Shown here in pieces: positions 3,228 through 10,060 of a DNA stretch of 62,235 nucleotides. The notes below the pieces were generated by a model, which saw only the letters and a program-made list of their open reading frames with translations, did not search any database and was not told the DNA's origin. The position numbers and the translations under genes are program-made. The stretch is from the NCBI GenBank assembly GCA_036744835.1, contig DAIOHD010000001.1:810447-872681 (forward strand), read 5' to 3'. How positions within the stretch are numbered: position 1 is the first letter of the stretch; each line of letters begins with the position of its first letter. This DNA is from Candidatus Magasanikiibacteriota bacterium. GTDB lineage: Bacteria > Patescibacteriota > Patescibacteriia > Magasanikbacterales > GWA2-37-8.

Positions 3228-3339
3228 GTTCAGGCGCTGGCCTACTTTTGCCTTTAGGGCTATCATCAGCGCCGAAGAGCTTAACTGCCGAGTTCGGGAT
3301 GGGATCGGGTGTGACACCTTCGCTTAAAGCACCTGAACT
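3228..3339 (-). rRNA. rrf: 5S rRNA
   Basis: Conserved CACCCGATCCCATCCCGAACTCGGCAGTTAAG core; terminal helix AGTTCAGG/CCTGAACT. Confidence 0.95.
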
Positions 3340-3667
3340 CTACACTTAAAATTTAAAAGAATATTTTGGGACACTAGAACACTACTTAATGCTTTTGTCG
3401 TACGCTCGACCAATTAGTACGCCTCAGCTCAACATATTACTATGCTTACACCTAACGCCTATCAACCTCGTAATCTACGAGGGGTCTATAACGAATGTTA
3501 ATCTAGAAGACAGCTTCACGCTTATATGCTTTCAGCGTTTATCTTAACCAAACATAGCTACCCAGCGATGCTCCTGACGGAACAACTGGTACACTAGAGG
3601 TTCGTTCATTCCGGTCCTCTCGTACTAGGAATGAGACTTCGCAACATTCTACGCCCGCAACAGATAG

Positions 3668-3719
<52 letters not shown>

Positions 3720-3732
3720 TGGCGAACAGCCA

Positions 3733-3791
<59 letters not shown>

Positions 3792-4327
3792 GCGCCGTCT
3801 ATGTGGACTATTGGGCGCGATCAGCCTGTTATCCCCGGAGTAGCTTTTATCCGTTGATCTTCCACCTTCCTATATAGGATGGTCGGTTCACTAACTTCTA
3901 CTTTCGTAACTGCTCGGATCGTTGTCCTTGCAGTAAAGCCAGCTTGTGCGTTTGCGCGTCCAGCTCGATTTCCATCCGAGCTAAGCTGACCTTTGTAAAC
4001 GCCTCCGTTACATTTTAGGAGGCAACCGCCCCAGTTAAACTACCCATCAGACACTGTCTTCTCTCCCTGATTCAAGGGAGAAAATTAGATATAAAATAAT
4101 TTAAGGGTGGTGTCTCATTGGCGCCTTGCGGCTCCCACCTACGCTGAACATAAATAACCTTATACCAATATCAAATTGTAGTAAAGCTTCACGGGGTCTT
4201 TTCGTCTAGTTGCGGGTAGGAGGCATCTTCACCTCCCTTGCAATTTCACCGAGTCCCTCGCTGAGACAGTCGCACCATCGTTATGCCATTCGTGCAGGTC
4301 GGAACTCACCCGACAAGGAATTTCGCT

Positions 4328-4620
4328 TTTCGCTTCCTTTTTGCGAAGGACTATATCTTCACCCCGATTTTACATCGGGGGCATAGCGTTTAGTCTCTGA
4401 GGATCCCAATTAAACGATTCATAATTGGTTTCCTGCTGATCGCTCATTTCTGAGCTTCCCAGCATACGGCTATGATTGGATTACATTTTACATTACTGTA
4501 AAATAAGGCAGCTTTTTAAATGGCTGTTATTTTAAACGTCTGCATCGTTTAAATTAAATCGATTGTTTACATATCGCTATATCCGTCCCAATCCTAGTAG
4601 ATTCAAGAATTAAATCCACT
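4328..4620 (-). ncRNA. Group I intron in 23S at E. coli position L1931, no homing endonuclease ORF
   Basis: Interrupts GGUCCUAAGGU^AGCGAAAUUCC. P3 CAUAGC(C)GU/ACGCUAUG, P4 UGCUG/CAGCA, P5 GCUCA-GAAA-UGAGC, P7 AGAGACUA/AAGAUAUAGUCC, P8 CCCCGAU/AUCGGGG all visible. Confidence 0.92.
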
Positions 4621-5297
4621 ACCTTAGGACGGTTATAGTTACCGCCGGCGTTCATCAGCGCTTCGGTTCAAGGCTTTGACTTGCGTCTAACCTCTCCCCT
4701 TAACGTTCTGACACTGGCCAGGCATCACCCCCTATACTTCAGCTTGCGCTTTTGCAGGGAGCTGTGTTTTTGGTAAACAGTCGCAGTGCGTCTTTTGTTG
4801 TAACCCCGATAAACGGGGCAGGCCTTATCCCGAAGTTACGGCCGTTGTATTGCAGAGTTCCTTAGCGAAGGTTCTCTCGTACGCCTTAGTCTACTCGACT
4901 CACCCACCTGTGTCGGTTTACGGTACGATTTTATATAGCTTAACGATTTTCGCCTTTTCTTGGCACCAAATCCCCTTGAATTGAATCCACCCGGAGGCTT
5001 CATCTCTATCTTGCGAAACGTGTATATTCAAAACACGCTCAAAGCTTTCTAATGCGCAGCTAAACCAAACTATATAAAGTGCAGGAATATTGACCTGCTC
5101 TTCCATCGACTACGCCTTTCGGCCTCGCCTTAGGATCGACTAACCCAGGGACGATTCTCGTTGCCCTGGAAACCTTGGGTTTACGGCGGGCATGATTCTC
5201 ACATGCCTTTTTGCTACTTATGCCTGCATTCTCACTTCTTAACACTCCACCATGACTCACGTCTTTGGCTTCTGCGCGTTAAGAACGCTCCTCTACC

Positions 5298-5427
5298 GAT
5301 GCCACAAGAAACCCTTCATTCAACTTATTTGTTCCTTTCTCTCATTTGCAGAAAAAATTATAAATAATTTTTTCTGAGAAATGTTATTTAAGGATTTTCT
5401 GTTGAACAGAAAGTTTCTTGTGACATC
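5298..5427 (-). other. Helix-45 expansion / intervening-sequence-like insert in 23S
   Basis: gatgccacaagaaac (5298-5312) pairs with gtttcttgtgacatc (5413-5427) around about 100 AT-rich nt containing two more hairpins; E. coli has only a short hairpin here. Confidence 0.8.
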
Positions 5428-5505
5428 CCATAGCTTCGGCACCATGTTTGAGCCCCGATACATTTTCGGCGCTAAAACTCTTGACCAGTGAGCTGTTACG
5501 CTATC

Positions 5506-5537
<32 letters not shown>

Positions 5538-7106
5538 TGGTTGTTTAAGAATTAGAACCACCTTTTACACTTAACATGGATTTAGGGGCCTTAGCTTATG
5601 ATCATGGGCTGTTTCCCTTTTGACGATGGCGCTTAGCCGTCACCGTCTGACTCCTGAGTTTTTAACTTTTGGCATTCGGAGTTTGATTGAGAACGGTATC
5701 CCGAAGGACCCAATTCTTATCCAGTGCTCTACCACCAAAAGGAACACTCAAGGCTAGCCCTAGAGCTATTTCGAGGAGAACCAGCTATCACCGAGTTCGA
5801 TTAGAATTTCTCTCCTATCCACAACTCATCCCCGCGTGTTGCACAGCGCGTGGGTTCGGACCTCCTCCTGTATTTCTACAGGACTCATCCTGGTCATGGA
5901 TAGCTCACCCGGTTTCGGGTCGTGTATATGCCACTTAGGCGCCCGTTAAGACTCGCTTTCGCTATGCCTCCGCCCCATAAGGGCTTAAGCTCGCGACACA
6001 CACACACTCGCAGGCTCATTCTTCAATAGGAATACCATCACCGACGTTATACACTAAAGAATCAAAATTTAATTTTAAAATTCCTCAGTGTATAACACCG
6101 GCTCTGGCTCTTTGTAAGCATACGGTTTCAGATACTATTTCATCGCCCTCCCGGGCTGCTTTTCACCTTTCCCTCATGGTACTTGTTTACTATCGATCAC
6201 TAAAAGTATTTAGTCTTAGACCATAGTCGGCCCAAATTCAGGCGGAATTTCACGAGTTCCGTCCTACTCAAGAATAATGACTGCAACCGATTAAAATTTT
6301 TCACGTACAGGACTATTACCTTCTGTGGTTAAACTTTCCAGTTTATTCTGTTAAATTTTAAACGATTGTCCAATATATCAGGTAATTGGCGTCACTATCT
6401 TATTACCCCGTATAAACAACGGCCTGTCCTTTAATCTATAAATCACGGTAATCTTACGATAAACCAGTTTTTATAGAAACATTTATACGGTTTAGACTGT
6501 TCCCTTTTCGCTCGCCACTACTAAGGGAATCTCTGCGATTTCTTGTCCTCTGGTTACTGAGATGTTTCACTTCACCAGGTTTGCTTTGCATACCTATGTA
6601 TTCAGCATGCACTGTCCCGATCAAGTCGGGACGGGTTTCCCCATTCGGAAATCCCCGGGTCAAAGGTTGTTTGGGACCTCACCGAGGCTTATCGCACCCT
6701 ACAACGTCCTTCTTAGCCTTTTAGTGTCAAGGCATCCACCATATGCTCTTATTTGAAATTGCGCACGACAAAAACACTAAACAGTGTTTTCTCGTGCCCC
6801 AAAATATTCTTTTAAATTGTCAATTTACAATCCGTAATCTTATCAGATGTTTTCAACCGATTTTTTCAGTTAAAATCATCTGCTAATATTTTTTAAATTT
6901 TTTAAAAAAAACAACCGCCTATCTAAGCGGTGTCAAAATTTATGGGAGTGCCCCATTAAACCGCTTGGATTCTAAGTAAGATAATTTGTTTTTCTCGTAA
7001 ACATTTTTTTAAGCTTTTGAGCTTCTTACCCAGAGGTCCAATTTGACGTTGCCGTCGAAAAGTTTAATGTGGACGTGGTTTTTAATAGTTTTTTATTGCA
7101 AAGCAA

Positions 7107-7135
7107 ATAATAGCAAATTATTTTAAAGGTGTCAA
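7107..7135 (-). promoter_or_regulatory. sigma70 promoter of the 23S-5S unit
   Basis: TTGACA-17bp-TATTAT about 340 nt upstream of the 23S 5' end. Confidence 0.8.
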
Positions 7136-7144
7136 GAGCAGGTT

Positions 7145-7162
7145 TGTGGATAGTTATCCACA
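7145..7162. promoter_or_regulatory. Back-to-back inverted DnaA boxes
   Basis: TGTGGATAG (one mismatch) directly followed by perfect TTATCCACA. Confidence 0.6.
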
Positions 7163-7189
7163 ATAAAATAACTTTCTTTTTCCCTTGTT

Positions 7190-7471
7190 TTAAACCTTTT
7201 TTGACAATATTACTATCAACCCACCAAATTCATCCACAACCTCCTGACTTAAGTTATTTTTTAATAAATAAGTTTTTACTTTTTCTTTGAAAATTCCTTT
7301 TCCCCCGCCGGTAATAATCCGAACCGCGGGTTCTTTATTCAAAAAATTTTGATATAAAAACTGATCAACTTTTTCTTCCACCCCATTTATATTTTCTCCA
7401 TGCAAATCCAACTCCGGAATTTGTGCTCCAAGCTCAAAAGATAATTTTAAAAATTTATTTTTATCAGACAT
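7190..7471 (-). CDS. Stand-alone Smr-domain protein
   Basis: ELDLHG ... VRIITGGGKG ... GGLIV Smr signature. Confidence 0.88.
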   Translation of the reverse strand: MSDKNKFLKLSFELGAQIPELDLHGENINGVEEKVDQFLYQNFLNKEPAVRIITGGGKGIFKEKVKTYLLKNNLSQEVVDEFGGLIVILSKKV

Positions 7472-7539
7472 AGTTTTTAAAACCCGCCGATTAAGCGGGT
7501 TAAGAATTTTTTATAACAAACTATTACATTCCTCTTAAG

Positions 7540-7621
7540 TGCGGGCGGAGAGACTCGAACTCTCACGGATTGCTCCACGTGCTCCTAAGGCACGCGTGTA
7601 TACCAATTTCACCACGCCCGC
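7540..7621 (-). tRNA. tRNA-Leu(TAG)
   Basis: Cloverleaf, CGTGC-CT TAG GA-GCACG anticodon arm, long variable arm, GTTCGAG T loop; CCA not encoded. Confidence 0.95.
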
Positions 7622-7837: not shown

Positions 7838-10060
7838 TTATCTTCCTCTTCCACCACCATGAGATGGCCTACCACCACCACTTCTACCACCCCTGTCATT
7901 TCTATCACTTCTTTGTGGTCTCTCATATTCCACATAACCTTCAGGTTTTGGAAGTAAAGCACGAATACTCAAATTCACTCGTCCCAAACTATCAATTTCT
8001 TTTACTAAAACTTTTACTTTATCACCAATTTTCAAAACATCACTTGGCTTATTGGTACGAGCCCAAGCAATTTCAGAAACATGAACCAATCCATCTTGTC
8101 CAGGTAATACATTAATAAATGCACCAAAATCTTCCAAACGCACAACTTCACCATCATAAGTTTCTCCGGCAGTAATTTCATGAGTCAAAGCTTTTACCCA
8201 TTCTACCGCTTTTTTCATACCTTCAGAATCAGAAGATGTAATCATCACGCGACCATCTTGTTCAATATCAATTTGCGCACCGGTTTCATCAATAATTTTA
8301 TTGATCATTTTTCCACCAGGACCGATAACATCACGAATTTTATCTGGGTTGATCATTATAGTTACGATACGAGGAGCAAATGGTGACATTTCTTTTCTTG
8401 GTTCGGAAATAATTTTTTCCATTACATCCAAAATTTGTTTTCTCGCTTCAAAAGATTGTTTAAAAGTTTGTTTCACAATTTCCCAATTTAAACCCTCTGT
8501 TTTGGTATCCATCTGCATTGCAGTGATACCGTCGCGAGTTCCGGTAATTTTGAAATCCATTCCGCCCGGACCGTCTTCAATATCTTGAAGATCGGTAATA
8601 ACTTTCCAATCGTTACCAACACTTGCCAAGCCCATAGCAATACCAGCTACCGGTTTTTTGATAGGTACACCAGCATCCATAAGAGCCAAAGTAGAGCCGC
8701 AAGTTGAAGCCATAGAAGAACTTCCGTTGCTTCCCATTACTTCGGAAACTATGCGAATAGTATATGGAAAATCTTTTTCTTCCGGTAAAACAGCATATAA
8801 AGCTTTTTCTGCCAAAGCTCCGTGACCAATAGCACGATTACCCGGCCCACGAAGAGGTCCGGCTTCACCGTAACTAGCTGGAGTATCATTATAATGGTGC
8901 ATGTATCTCTTGGTACAATCTTCTTCCATAGTATCAATAGTTTGTTTATCTCCAGGGGCACCCAAAGTTATCACTGAAAGAACTTGTGTGTCACCTCTCA
9001 TAAACATACCGGAACCATGAGTACGTGGCAATAAACTAACCTCACTATAAAGAGGTCTTACTTCTTCAATTTTACGACCGTCAAGACGTTCGTTTTTTTC
9101 TAAAATTCTAGCGGTTATTACTTCTTCAACATAAATTTTTATCCGAGCTAAAACCACTTTTTGAACACCTTCTTCTACTTCTTGTGTTTCAAGTAAGGTT
9201 TTTATGGCTTCACTAAATTTATCTACCATAGCCACTCTTTCGGAACGTCCTTTTTTAGGAGTATCAAAAATCCAATCAGCTACATGACTTTTAACAAAAG
9301 CACGAACTTGTTCTTCGGTTTCACGCAATTTTTTATCAAATTCAGATAAATTTGCTTCTAAATTTATTTTTTCTTTTCCAACTTCACTTTGAATTTTATT
9401 TATAAATTCAATTACCGGTTTGAAATTTTCTGCCCCAAATTGCATCGCCGCAATCATCTCTTCTTCTTTGGTTTCTTTGGCTTCAGCTTCAACCATAATT
9501 ATTTTTTCTGGAGTCCCAGCAACAAAAACATCTAGATCGCTCTTTGCGCAATCAGCAATACTAGGATTTAAAATAAATTTTCCATCAATTTTTCCAACAC
9601 GGGCGCCAGCAATCGGACCATTCCAAGGCACATCAGAAATTGCCAAAACAGTTGCTGCAGCTATCATTGCTGGAACTTGAGAATCATTTTCTCCATCAAA
9701 AGAAAGTGCAGTCAAAACAACTTGTACATCATTGCGCATTTCTTGATTAAAAAGTGGACGAATAGCTCTATCTACCAAACGGCCTGAAAGTATTGCTTCT
9801 TCGCTAGCTCTACCTTCACGTTTGATAAAACGACTACCTTTTATCTTTCCTGCTGCATACATTTTTTCCTCAAAATTAACCATTAAAGGAAAAAAATCTA
9901 AACCATCACGAATGTTTTTACTCATGACTACAGTTGCCAAAAGTACCGTATCGCCATAGCGCACAGTACAAGATCCATTGGTGAGAAAAGCGTATTTACC
10001 GGTTTCTACCGTTAAAGTACGACCGCCCCAATCCATAGACCATTGTTTTACGTCTAACAT
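7838..10060 (-). CDS. pnp: Polyribonucleotide nucleotidyltransferase (PNPase)
   Basis: Two RNase PH domains (GSRFIKREGR, SNGSSSMAS, DFKITG), KH and S1 domains, RGG-rich tail. Confidence 0.98.
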   Translation of the reverse strand: MLDVKQWSMDWGGRTLTVETGKYAFLTNGSCTVRYGDTVLLATVVMSKNIRDGLDFFPLMVNFEEKMYAAGKIKGSRFIKREGRASEEAILSGRLVDRAIRPLFNQEMRNDVQVVLTALSFDGENDSQVPAMIAAATVLAISDVPWNGPIAGARVGKIDGKFILNPSIADCAKSDLDVFVAGTPEKIIMVEAEAKETKEEEMIAAMQFGAENFKPVIEFINKIQSEVGKEKINLEANLSEFDKKLRETEEQVRAFVKSHVADWIFDTPKKGRSERVAMVDKFSEAIKTLLETQEVEEGVQKVVLARIKIYVEEVITARILEKNERLDGRKIEEVRPLYSEVSLLPRTHGSGMFMRGDTQVLSVITLGAPGDKQTIDTMEEDCTKRYMHHYNDTPASYGEAGPLRGPGNRAIGHGALAEKALYAVLPEEKDFPYTIRIVSEVMGSNGSSSMASTCGSTLALMDAGVPIKKPVAGIAMGLASVGNDWKVITDLQDIEDGPGGMDFKITGTRDGITAMQMDTKTEGLNWEIVKQTFKQSFEARKQILDVMEKIISEPRKEMSPFAPRIVTIMINPDKIRDVIGPGGKMINKIIDETGAQIDIEQDGRVMITSSDSEGMKKAVEWVKALTHEITAGETYDGEVVRLEDFGAFINVLPGQDGLVHVSEIAWARTNKPSDVLKIGDKVKVLVKEIDSLGRVNLSIRALLPKPEGYVEYERPQRSDRNDRGGRSGGGRPSHGGGRGR

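Follow-up and report, generated by a model that had tools for sequence, protein, structure and literature searches.

Can a group I intron whose last nucleotide (omega) is A rather than G still act as a splicing ribozyme? The question is raised by an intron that interrupts a 23S ribosomal RNA (rRNA) gene after U1931 (Escherichia coli numbering; site L1931) in the window analysed here, by which we mean the whole stretch of 62,235 nucleotides (nt); this contig is bacterial, has a GC content of about 35% and is densely packed with open reading frames (ORFs). Textbooks treat two features of group I catalysis as invariant, a terminal guanosine (omega-G) and a G-C pair in the guanosine-binding pocket of P7, and intron boundaries are annotated with their help; the intron has the second of these and not the first. 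Comparison with its relatives led us to conclude that it is a bona fide omega-A group I intron without an ORF, and that it probably splices.

Alignment of the flanks to the large-subunit (LSU) rRNA model left an insert of 293-294 nt between ...CCUAAGGU and AGCGAAAUUCC, bounded by U1931 (window 4621) and A1932 (window 4327). On the minus strand, the Rfam family Intron_gpI (RF00028) gave a match at 4337-4530 that scored 61 bits (gathering score 50), and the intron contained no ORF longer than 33 amino acids. An initial annotation, made from this DNA alone, had recognised a group I intron in the 23S gene with a complete core, a G-C guanosine-binding pair in P7 and no homing endonuclease, and all three points were borne out: the Rfam match is accompanied by covariation support for P3-P8, the binding pair is G4395 with C4349, and the ORF search was negative. 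Every group I defining feature that we tested is present in the sequence except omega-G, the base at 4328 being an A.

The splice sites are set by an internal guide that is displaced far into the intron and conserved in all relatives. Its GCCUUA portion (4504-4509, intron nt 112-117) pairs with exon UAAGGU (4621-4626) to form P1 with a G opposite U1931, and this U1931·G wobble was found in 42 of the 42 relatives in our alignment (designated A2). The neighbouring GCU (4510-4512, intron nt 109-111) pairs with AGC at positions +1 to +3 of the 3′ exon, giving a P10 of 3 base pairs (bp) that was 99% paired. Since the one guide, GCU-G-CCUU, sets both P1 and P10, the splice sites fall exactly between U1931 and A1932, and a shift by 2 nt is excluded. 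Opposite U1931, 56 of 58 introns with a P4-P6 domain had G, and 24 of 27 without one had A; since the wobble pair is received by J4/5, which lies inside P4-P6 (PMC10020454), this dependence on P4-P6 supports the P1 assignment.

In the initial annotation, P1 had instead been drawn between AGUGGAUU and AAUCUACU, with U1931 opposite A. This was a mis-assignment, as the two strands form a conserved peripheral hairpin at the intron's 5′ end (hairpin H) and the true P1 contains the U·G wobble. We also considered and rejected an exon pairing beside hairpin H, which places U1931 opposite A and both G1930 and G1929 opposite G, while the adjacent GGAUU pairs with AAUCC in another helix (Px). A 5′ splice site at U1926 was rejected as well: the GGGAC element gives a U·G wobble there, but the 3′ tail cannot restore AAGGUAGCG.

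The terminal base would be a G again if splicing took place 2 nt downstream (GGUAG/UGG ... AAAAG/CGAAA), leaving a 5′ exon that ends in G1933. That such a slide yields a terminal G had been pointed out in the initial annotation and is formally true for the window sequence alone, in which the intron and the 3′ exon both start with AG and the register is formally ambiguous. However, in 13 of the 16 omega-A relatives in genomes the intron opens with U, G or AU and has no initial AG, hence no slide is possible in them, and the AG-starting relatives L141, L145 and L148 carry omega-G at the unshifted site. The guide, moreover, puts the wobble at U1931 and P10 at A1932-C1934. We regard shifted-site splicing as extremely improbable, the homologues and the guide register both excluding it.

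With the register fixed by the homologues and by P1 and P10, the final base of the intron is A, as originally annotated, and its last 7 nt (AGCGAAA) do recur as the opening 7 nt of the 3′ exon. The apparent duplication is made up of the last base of a loop, the 3′ strand (GCGAA) of a terminal hairpin, and omega. As this hairpin begins immediately 3′ of P7 and stops immediately 5′ of omega, it occupies the position of P9.0 or the P7 extension. Its stem takes the forms UUCGC/GCGAA and UUCGU/ACGAA among the relatives, and sister introns have AACGAAA or AACGAAG in place of AGCGAAA, agreeing with 6 or 5 of the 7 exon bases. The terminal loop carries a conserved AGGAA whose complement, UUCCU, lies in the exon at +8 to +12. 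A pairing of the two is predicted by RNAalifold and was 97% paired, but the invariance of the exon puts it beyond the covariation test. The Rfam match ends at 4337, on an 'AG' within the terminal hairpin loop, 9 nt short of the true 3′ end. Taking a loop G there as omega was rejected, as it would leave 8-9 extra nt in helix 70 (H70) and would turn the covarying terminal hairpin into exon.

An assembly or consensus artefact, in which 4328 is really a G or the 7-nt duplication is spurious, has nothing to recommend it beyond the unusual look of the 3′ end. It is refuted by the finding of identical ends in dozens of independent assemblies, the same tail, GGAAGCGAAA followed directly by AGCGAAAUUCC, being present in 56 metagenome contigs and in unrelated metagenome-assembled genomes (MAGs) that belong to different phyla and come from different studies, and by the fact that the 'duplication' is one strand of a covarying hairpin. 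The chance of such an error is practically negligible.

We scanned genomes and metagenomes and recovered about 100 distinct relatives, the majority of them in the Candidate Phyla Radiation (CPR). An exact search for the 3′-junction pattern, with one genome per species, returned six 23S introns with the same tail, in Adlerbacteria, Magasanikbacteria, Taylorbacteria, Paceibacterota, Moraniibacteriota and an uncultured gammaproteobacterium. We then scored omega in the subclade of introns with the terminal stem UUCGY/RCGAA, using scans that left the terminal base free. Among 26 such introns from species-representative genomes, omega was A in 16 (the window's own included), G in 8, U in 1 and C in 1, while the 66 metagenome matches, retrieved with a pattern that demanded the G-C form of the P7 3′ strand (GUCC), had A in 56, G in 10 and a pyrimidine in none. 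The close relatives of the window intron, L209 (94% similar), L154, L169 and L173, all end in A. In a neighbour-joining tree, introns ending in A, G and pyrimidines were interleaved, with the window intron (A) having L145 (G) as its sister; six introns formed a diverged clade that was wholly omega-A. A scan anchored only on the 5′ junction separated two L1931 families, a classical one and a short, CPR-rich one with an extra 5′ module, to which the window intron belongs.

The structure was tested by covariation. A hand-drawn structure, pseudoknots included, was 88.8% paired across the 42 relatives, versus 37-46% when the partners were slid, and its covariation score of 0.378, versus 0.07-0.09 for the slid controls, was reached by 0 of 500 shuffles. 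When the ten omega-A introns were analysed alone, compensatory changes were found in 34 of the 67 predicted pairs, which points to selection on the omega-A fold itself. The core motifs were invariant in A2, the pocket and J8/7 were identical in omega-A and omega-G introns, and inspection by eye revealed no positions that separate omega-A from omega-G introns within the class with a G-C binding pair.

These data bear on the possibility that the intron is a decaying selfish element, recently inactivated and drifting towards loss in a pseudogenised or redundant rRNA gene. Such decay would fit an intron that has no ORF and some of whose relatives have lost even P4-P6, but it is at odds with the invariant core motifs, with compensatory evolution among the omega-A introns, with a deep clade that is wholly omega-A, and with a host 23S gene that is full length at 2443 bits. 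The compensatory changes, the interleaved states in the tree, the invariant core and the coupling of omega to P7 described below all argue that omega-A is functional, and we consider decay highly improbable. The initial annotation had also raised the possibility of a non-functional allele or a consensus error, which is very unlikely in view of the independent assemblies, the compensatory changes and the restriction of omega to purines wherever the binding pair is G-C.

We next turned to P7, in which CAG-A-(G)ACUA pairs with UAGU(C)C; the bracketed bases are G4395 and C4349, accompanied by a bulged A and an outer pair. From alignment to the Tetrahymena P7 motif, we take G4395 to be the equivalent of Tetrahymena G264. 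The identity of omega followed this binding pair without exception in 107 distinct 3′ regions (two of the G-C class labels were set by eye): the 82 sequences with a G-C pair ended in A (48) or G (34) and never in a pyrimidine, those with a U-A pair ended in C (20) or U (3), and the two with an A-U pair ended in U. In A2, the binding-pair column 554/618 was GC in 32 and UA in 10. A scan that selected only for a changed P7 3′ strand returned 24 rRNA introns, all of them pyrimidine-ended. Since omega tracks the P7 pair without exception, it appears to be read by the pocket, and the coupling is sensible only with docking of the terminal base on that pair, which points to the second splicing step. 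The coupling would obey a Hoogsteen logic, in which A is read by U or C and G is read by G or A.

The U-A and A-U relatives look like a natural respecification of the nucleotide pocket. Michel et al. 1989 are said to have engineered a switch of this kind at the G site of Tetrahymena, from G264-C311 to A-U, and we know of no description of the P7 pair and omega changing together in natural introns. It seems possible, if somewhat doubtful, that all members of the lineage are active, the window form ligating with A docked on G-C and the U-A and A-U cousins being respecified, perhaps with a cofactor other than guanosine in the first step. U-A pockets were seen at loci L058, L071, L116, L118, L134, L150, L217, L219, L221 and L223-L238, and A-U pockets at L020 and L108. 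The first pair in the terminal hairpin is likewise flipped in the U-A forms, being A-U instead of U-A.

Ordinary two-step group I splicing with omega-A is the reading that we favour and consider likely on this comparative evidence; of the four alternatives put forward in the initial annotation, an omega-A ribozyme is the only one that fits. A canonical P1, in which exon UAAGGU pairs with guide GCCUUA and includes the U1931·G wobble, would define the 5′ splice site, while a further helix between the intron and the 3′ strand of helix 69 (H69), termed Py, would reinforce the hold on the 5′ exon. In the first step, exogenous guanosine bound in the unchanged G-C pocket of P7 would attack at U1931. 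In the second, the 3′ site would be set by P10 together with the P9.0-like hairpin of 5 bp, which would place the terminal A in the pocket. Either this rigid tether and P10 would make the base triple with G dispensable, or A, possibly protonated, would make a weaker purine-purine contact with the pocket G.

Several points weigh against this interpretation. Changing omega-G to A in the Tetrahymena ribozyme reportedly impairs exon ligation strongly, and the L1931 intron of Simkania is said, in the title of Everett et al. 1999, to remain unspliced in mature 23S rRNA. Our counts are of sequences and not of independent evolutionary events. Both the loop-exon pairing and the idea of a protonated A are beyond the covariation test, the exon being invariant. 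Finally, that the exons are ligated precisely, with a terminal A and without a protein, is something we infer from sequence.

A rival explanation is that the intron folds, and may carry out the first step, but that the second step is not driven by the ribozyme. The intron would then either be retained as an expansion of H69-H71 or be removed by host nucleases or ligases or with a protein cofactor, and omega-A would be tolerated since the second step of the ribozyme is unused. In favour of this explanation, omega is not G, and the unspliced Simkania intron offers a precedent. The intron encodes no maturase, and CPR rRNAs bear many insertions according to a survey of these organisms (PMC11270868). 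However, P10 is 99% conserved and the coupling of omega to P7 has no exceptions in 107 regions, and both of these matter only for the second step. Nor did omega become a pyrimidine in any of the 82 sequences with a G-C pocket, and the insert lies in the H69-H71 intersubunit bridge region of what is apparently the sole 23S gene on the contig. We therefore consider an unused or protein-driven second step unlikely, and retain ordinary splicing with omega-A as the preferred reading.

If this reading is correct, a terminal G is not needed for the second step given the right architecture, as it would not be in a large natural lineage that has kept its core and ends in A. With the members in which pocket and omega have changed jointly, the lineage would offer a natural series in which to study how the pocket recognises nucleotides. 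Annotation is affected as well. Calls made with a covariance model, or by finding the last G, misplace the 3′ end of these introns and would leave 8-9 foreign bases in the annotated 23S rRNA; such misplaced ends would corrupt CPR 23S sequences used for phylogeny and ribosome modelling.

A non-G omega is not unprecedented in view of the 23S group I intron of Coxiella burnetii, which reportedly lacks a canonical omega-G yet self-splices (title of Raghavan et al. 2007, J Bacteriol 189:6572). This element is reported to be Cbu.L1917, to have a terminal A and to be placed in a different subgroup. Like the window intron, whose core is otherwise intact, it lies in the H69-H71 neighbourhood of a bacterial 23S rRNA and lacks omega-G. 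However, it is inserted at L1917 or L1951 and not at L1931, and it was found in one organism, whereas the lineage described here has dozens of omega-A members.

In Tetrahymena, the base triple of omega-G with G264-C311 has been seen by cryogenic electron microscopy, and P9.0 or the P7 extension anchors the 3′ end beside the pocket (PMC10020454). The window intron has the same layout, in which an outer G-C, a bulged A and the G4395-C4349 pair correspond to C262-G312, A263 and G264-C311, and the two bases before omega likewise pair with bases just 3′ of P7 (PMC10020454). The difference lies in the ligand: in Tetrahymena it is naturally always G, whereas the window intron presents an A to an unchanged pair, and in some relatives the pair and omega have both changed.

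Group I introns at L1931 are known from Thermotoga, Simkania, Synechococcus, organelles (green-algal chloroplasts and Acanthamoeba mitochondria) and archaea (PMC1995217, PMC6125680), and were classed as IB4 by Nawrocki et al. 2018. The window intron shares with these classical elements the insertion after U1931, the type of guide (GCU..GCCUUAG, pairing with CUAAGGU) and the core motifs UCAGAGACUA and GAAGAUAUAGUCC. In the classical introns, however, the guide lies about 10-20 nt past the 5′ splice site and the intron ends in G, whereas in the window intron about 108 nt, comprising hairpin H, a strand of Px and the H69-binding strand of Py, separate the splice site from the guide, and the 5-bp terminal hairpin stands alone where the classical forms have a long P9. 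Some L1931 relatives carry LAGLIDADG ORFs (PMC1995217, PMC6125680), and L008 (698 nt) is a relative that bears an ORF; the window intron lacks the single-motif LAGLIDADG homing endonuclease gene of the IB4-type lineage. The survey by Tsurumaki et al. 2024 places group I introns, often with LAGLIDADG genes, at 23S position 1931 across the CPR (PMC11270868); it states that its insertion boundaries are inexact and, in the portions consulted, contains no analysis of splice junctions, omega or P7. In the literature we found no description of a lineage in which omega-A outnumbers omega-G, of a displaced guide with an H69-binding module, or of covariation between omega and P7.

The anatomy established from the Rfam alignment and A2 is given in Table 1.

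Table 1. Elements of the L1931 intron and its host gene, listed from the 5′ exon onwards after the genes, with positions in the window.
Feature	Positions	Strand	Details
23S rRNA host gene (bacterial)	3396..6768	minus	Rfam LSU_rRNA_bacteria, 2443 bits, full length
5S rRNA	3229-3336		downstream of the 23S rRNA gene
Group I intron	4328..4620	minus	293 nt, after U1931 (E. coli numbering); exon alignment, Rfam, homologues at the same site
Intron-bound 5′ exon segment	4621..4638	minus	-1 to -5/-6 (4621-4626) in P1; -6 to -18 (4626-4638, H69 3′ strand) in Py
5′-terminal hairpin H, AGUGGAUU...AAUCUACU	4596..4620	minus	8/8 pairs with compensatory changes, 95.8% paired
Px 5′ strand GGAUU	4590..4594	minus	pairs with AAUCC at 4478-4482
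Py intron strand GGGACGGAUAUAG	4577..4589	minus	complementary to exon 1914-1926; 12/13 bp in the window
Internal guide GCUGCCUUA (GCU-GCCUUA)	4504..4512	minus	intron nt 109-117; conserved in all relatives
P2 hairpin UUUUACA GUAA UGUAAAA	4486..4503	minus	7/7 pairs with compensatory changes
Px 3′ strand AAUCC	4478..4482	minus	downstream of P2
P3 5′ strand CAUAGCCG	4467..4474	minus	partner CGCUAUG; 5/7 pairs with compensatory changes; Rfam alignment
P4-P5-P6 domain	4401..4464	minus	Rfam alignment; P4 100% paired, P5 and P6 covary
J6/7 and P7 5′ strand UCAGAGACUA	4391..4400	minus	G at 4395 is the guanosine-binding G
P3 3′ strand CGCUAUG	4382..4388	minus	Rfam alignment
P8 hairpin	4362..4380	minus	6/7 pairs with compensatory changes
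J8/7 UGAAGAUA and P7 3′ strand UAGUCC	4348..4361	minus	C at 4349 pairs with the binding G; (near-)invariant in A2; P7 98.8% paired
Terminal hairpin UUCGC - AAAAAGGAA - GCGAA	4329..4347	minus	5/5 pairs with compensatory changes, 99% paired
Omega, final intron nucleotide	4328	minus	A, not G
3′ exon start	4316..4327	minus	AGC (4325-4327) in P10; UUCCU (4316-4320) complementary to AGGAA of the terminal loop

Py was 92% paired in A2, with covariation between the intron and the exon columns (CG:22 / UA:15 in one and CG:30 / GU:7 / GC:5 in another). Across hosts it covaries with five exon variants, AAUCG:CGAUU, AACGG:CUGUU, AACCG:CGGUU, AACUG:CAGUU and AAUUG:CAAUU. In the precursor, Py (4577-4589 with 4626-4638) would compete with the formation of H69. 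The region between Py and the guide is variable. Px was fully paired in 42 of the 42 relatives by direct extraction, with GGACU/GGUCC changing to GGAUU/RAUCC; the value of 64% from the alignment-based count is an artefact, MAFFT having moved the 3′ strand of Px by one column in the window's group. Py, P1, P2 and Px can be drawn together as a pseudoknotted four-helix junction.

Many members of the family are only 178-240 nt long and lack the whole of P4-P6, so that P3 closes directly onto J6/7-P7. Examples are L039 (178 nt), L089, L100, L105, L122, L141, L148, L004 and L010; of these, L141 and L148, which are in the window's own subgroup, have a clean deletion of P4-P6 relative to L145. Most such introns have A opposite U1931, so that the wobble has gone together with its J4/5 receptor. 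The close metagenome relatives L160 and L167 have an extra insert of about 50 nt (UCCCGACC...GUCGGGA) between P3 and P4 (A2 columns ~249-298), which the window intron lacks. On its single 4.2-kb contig, L167 also has the intron region twice, in inverted orientation, perhaps because of a palindrome created in assembly. By a simple boundary rule, the L1931 insertions L025, L095, L130, L013, L043, L056 and L086 also seemed not to end in G, their boundaries and intron type being provisional; they come mostly from Actinomycetota and other non-CPR MAGs and have different 5′ ends, for example GACAUGCCUG....

The 23S gene of the window is nearest to those on the metagenome contigs L209 and L160 (91-93%) and, among named genomes, to Candidatus Magasanikbacteria (83-84%). 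This similarity indicates a host within the CPR (Patescibacteria), close to Candidatus Magasanikbacteria. No 16S rRNA gene was found in the 62-kb window, and the place of 16S upstream of the 23S gene is taken by a transfer RNA gene for leucine (7539-7621) and a polynucleotide phosphorylase gene (7838-10060). As there is no 16S beside the 23S-5S pair (window 3229-7621), the rRNA operon appears to be split. Such a split operon might suggest a chloroplast, but an organellar origin is ruled out by the dense bacterial gene content, the set of tRNAs, the 23S similarity to Candidatus Magasanikbacteria and a metagenome contig record in the ENA assembly ERZ724098, where an identical gene is found. Alignment to the LSU model also revealed other large inserts in domain I/II of the 23S rRNA: model position 282 is followed by one of about 60 nt, and position 583 by another, corresponding to window ~6412-6480 and from ~6098 downward on the minus strand. 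They gave no group I match and could represent the expansion or intervening sequences that are typical of rRNAs in the CPR, in which insertion sequences were reportedly described by Brown et al. 2015.

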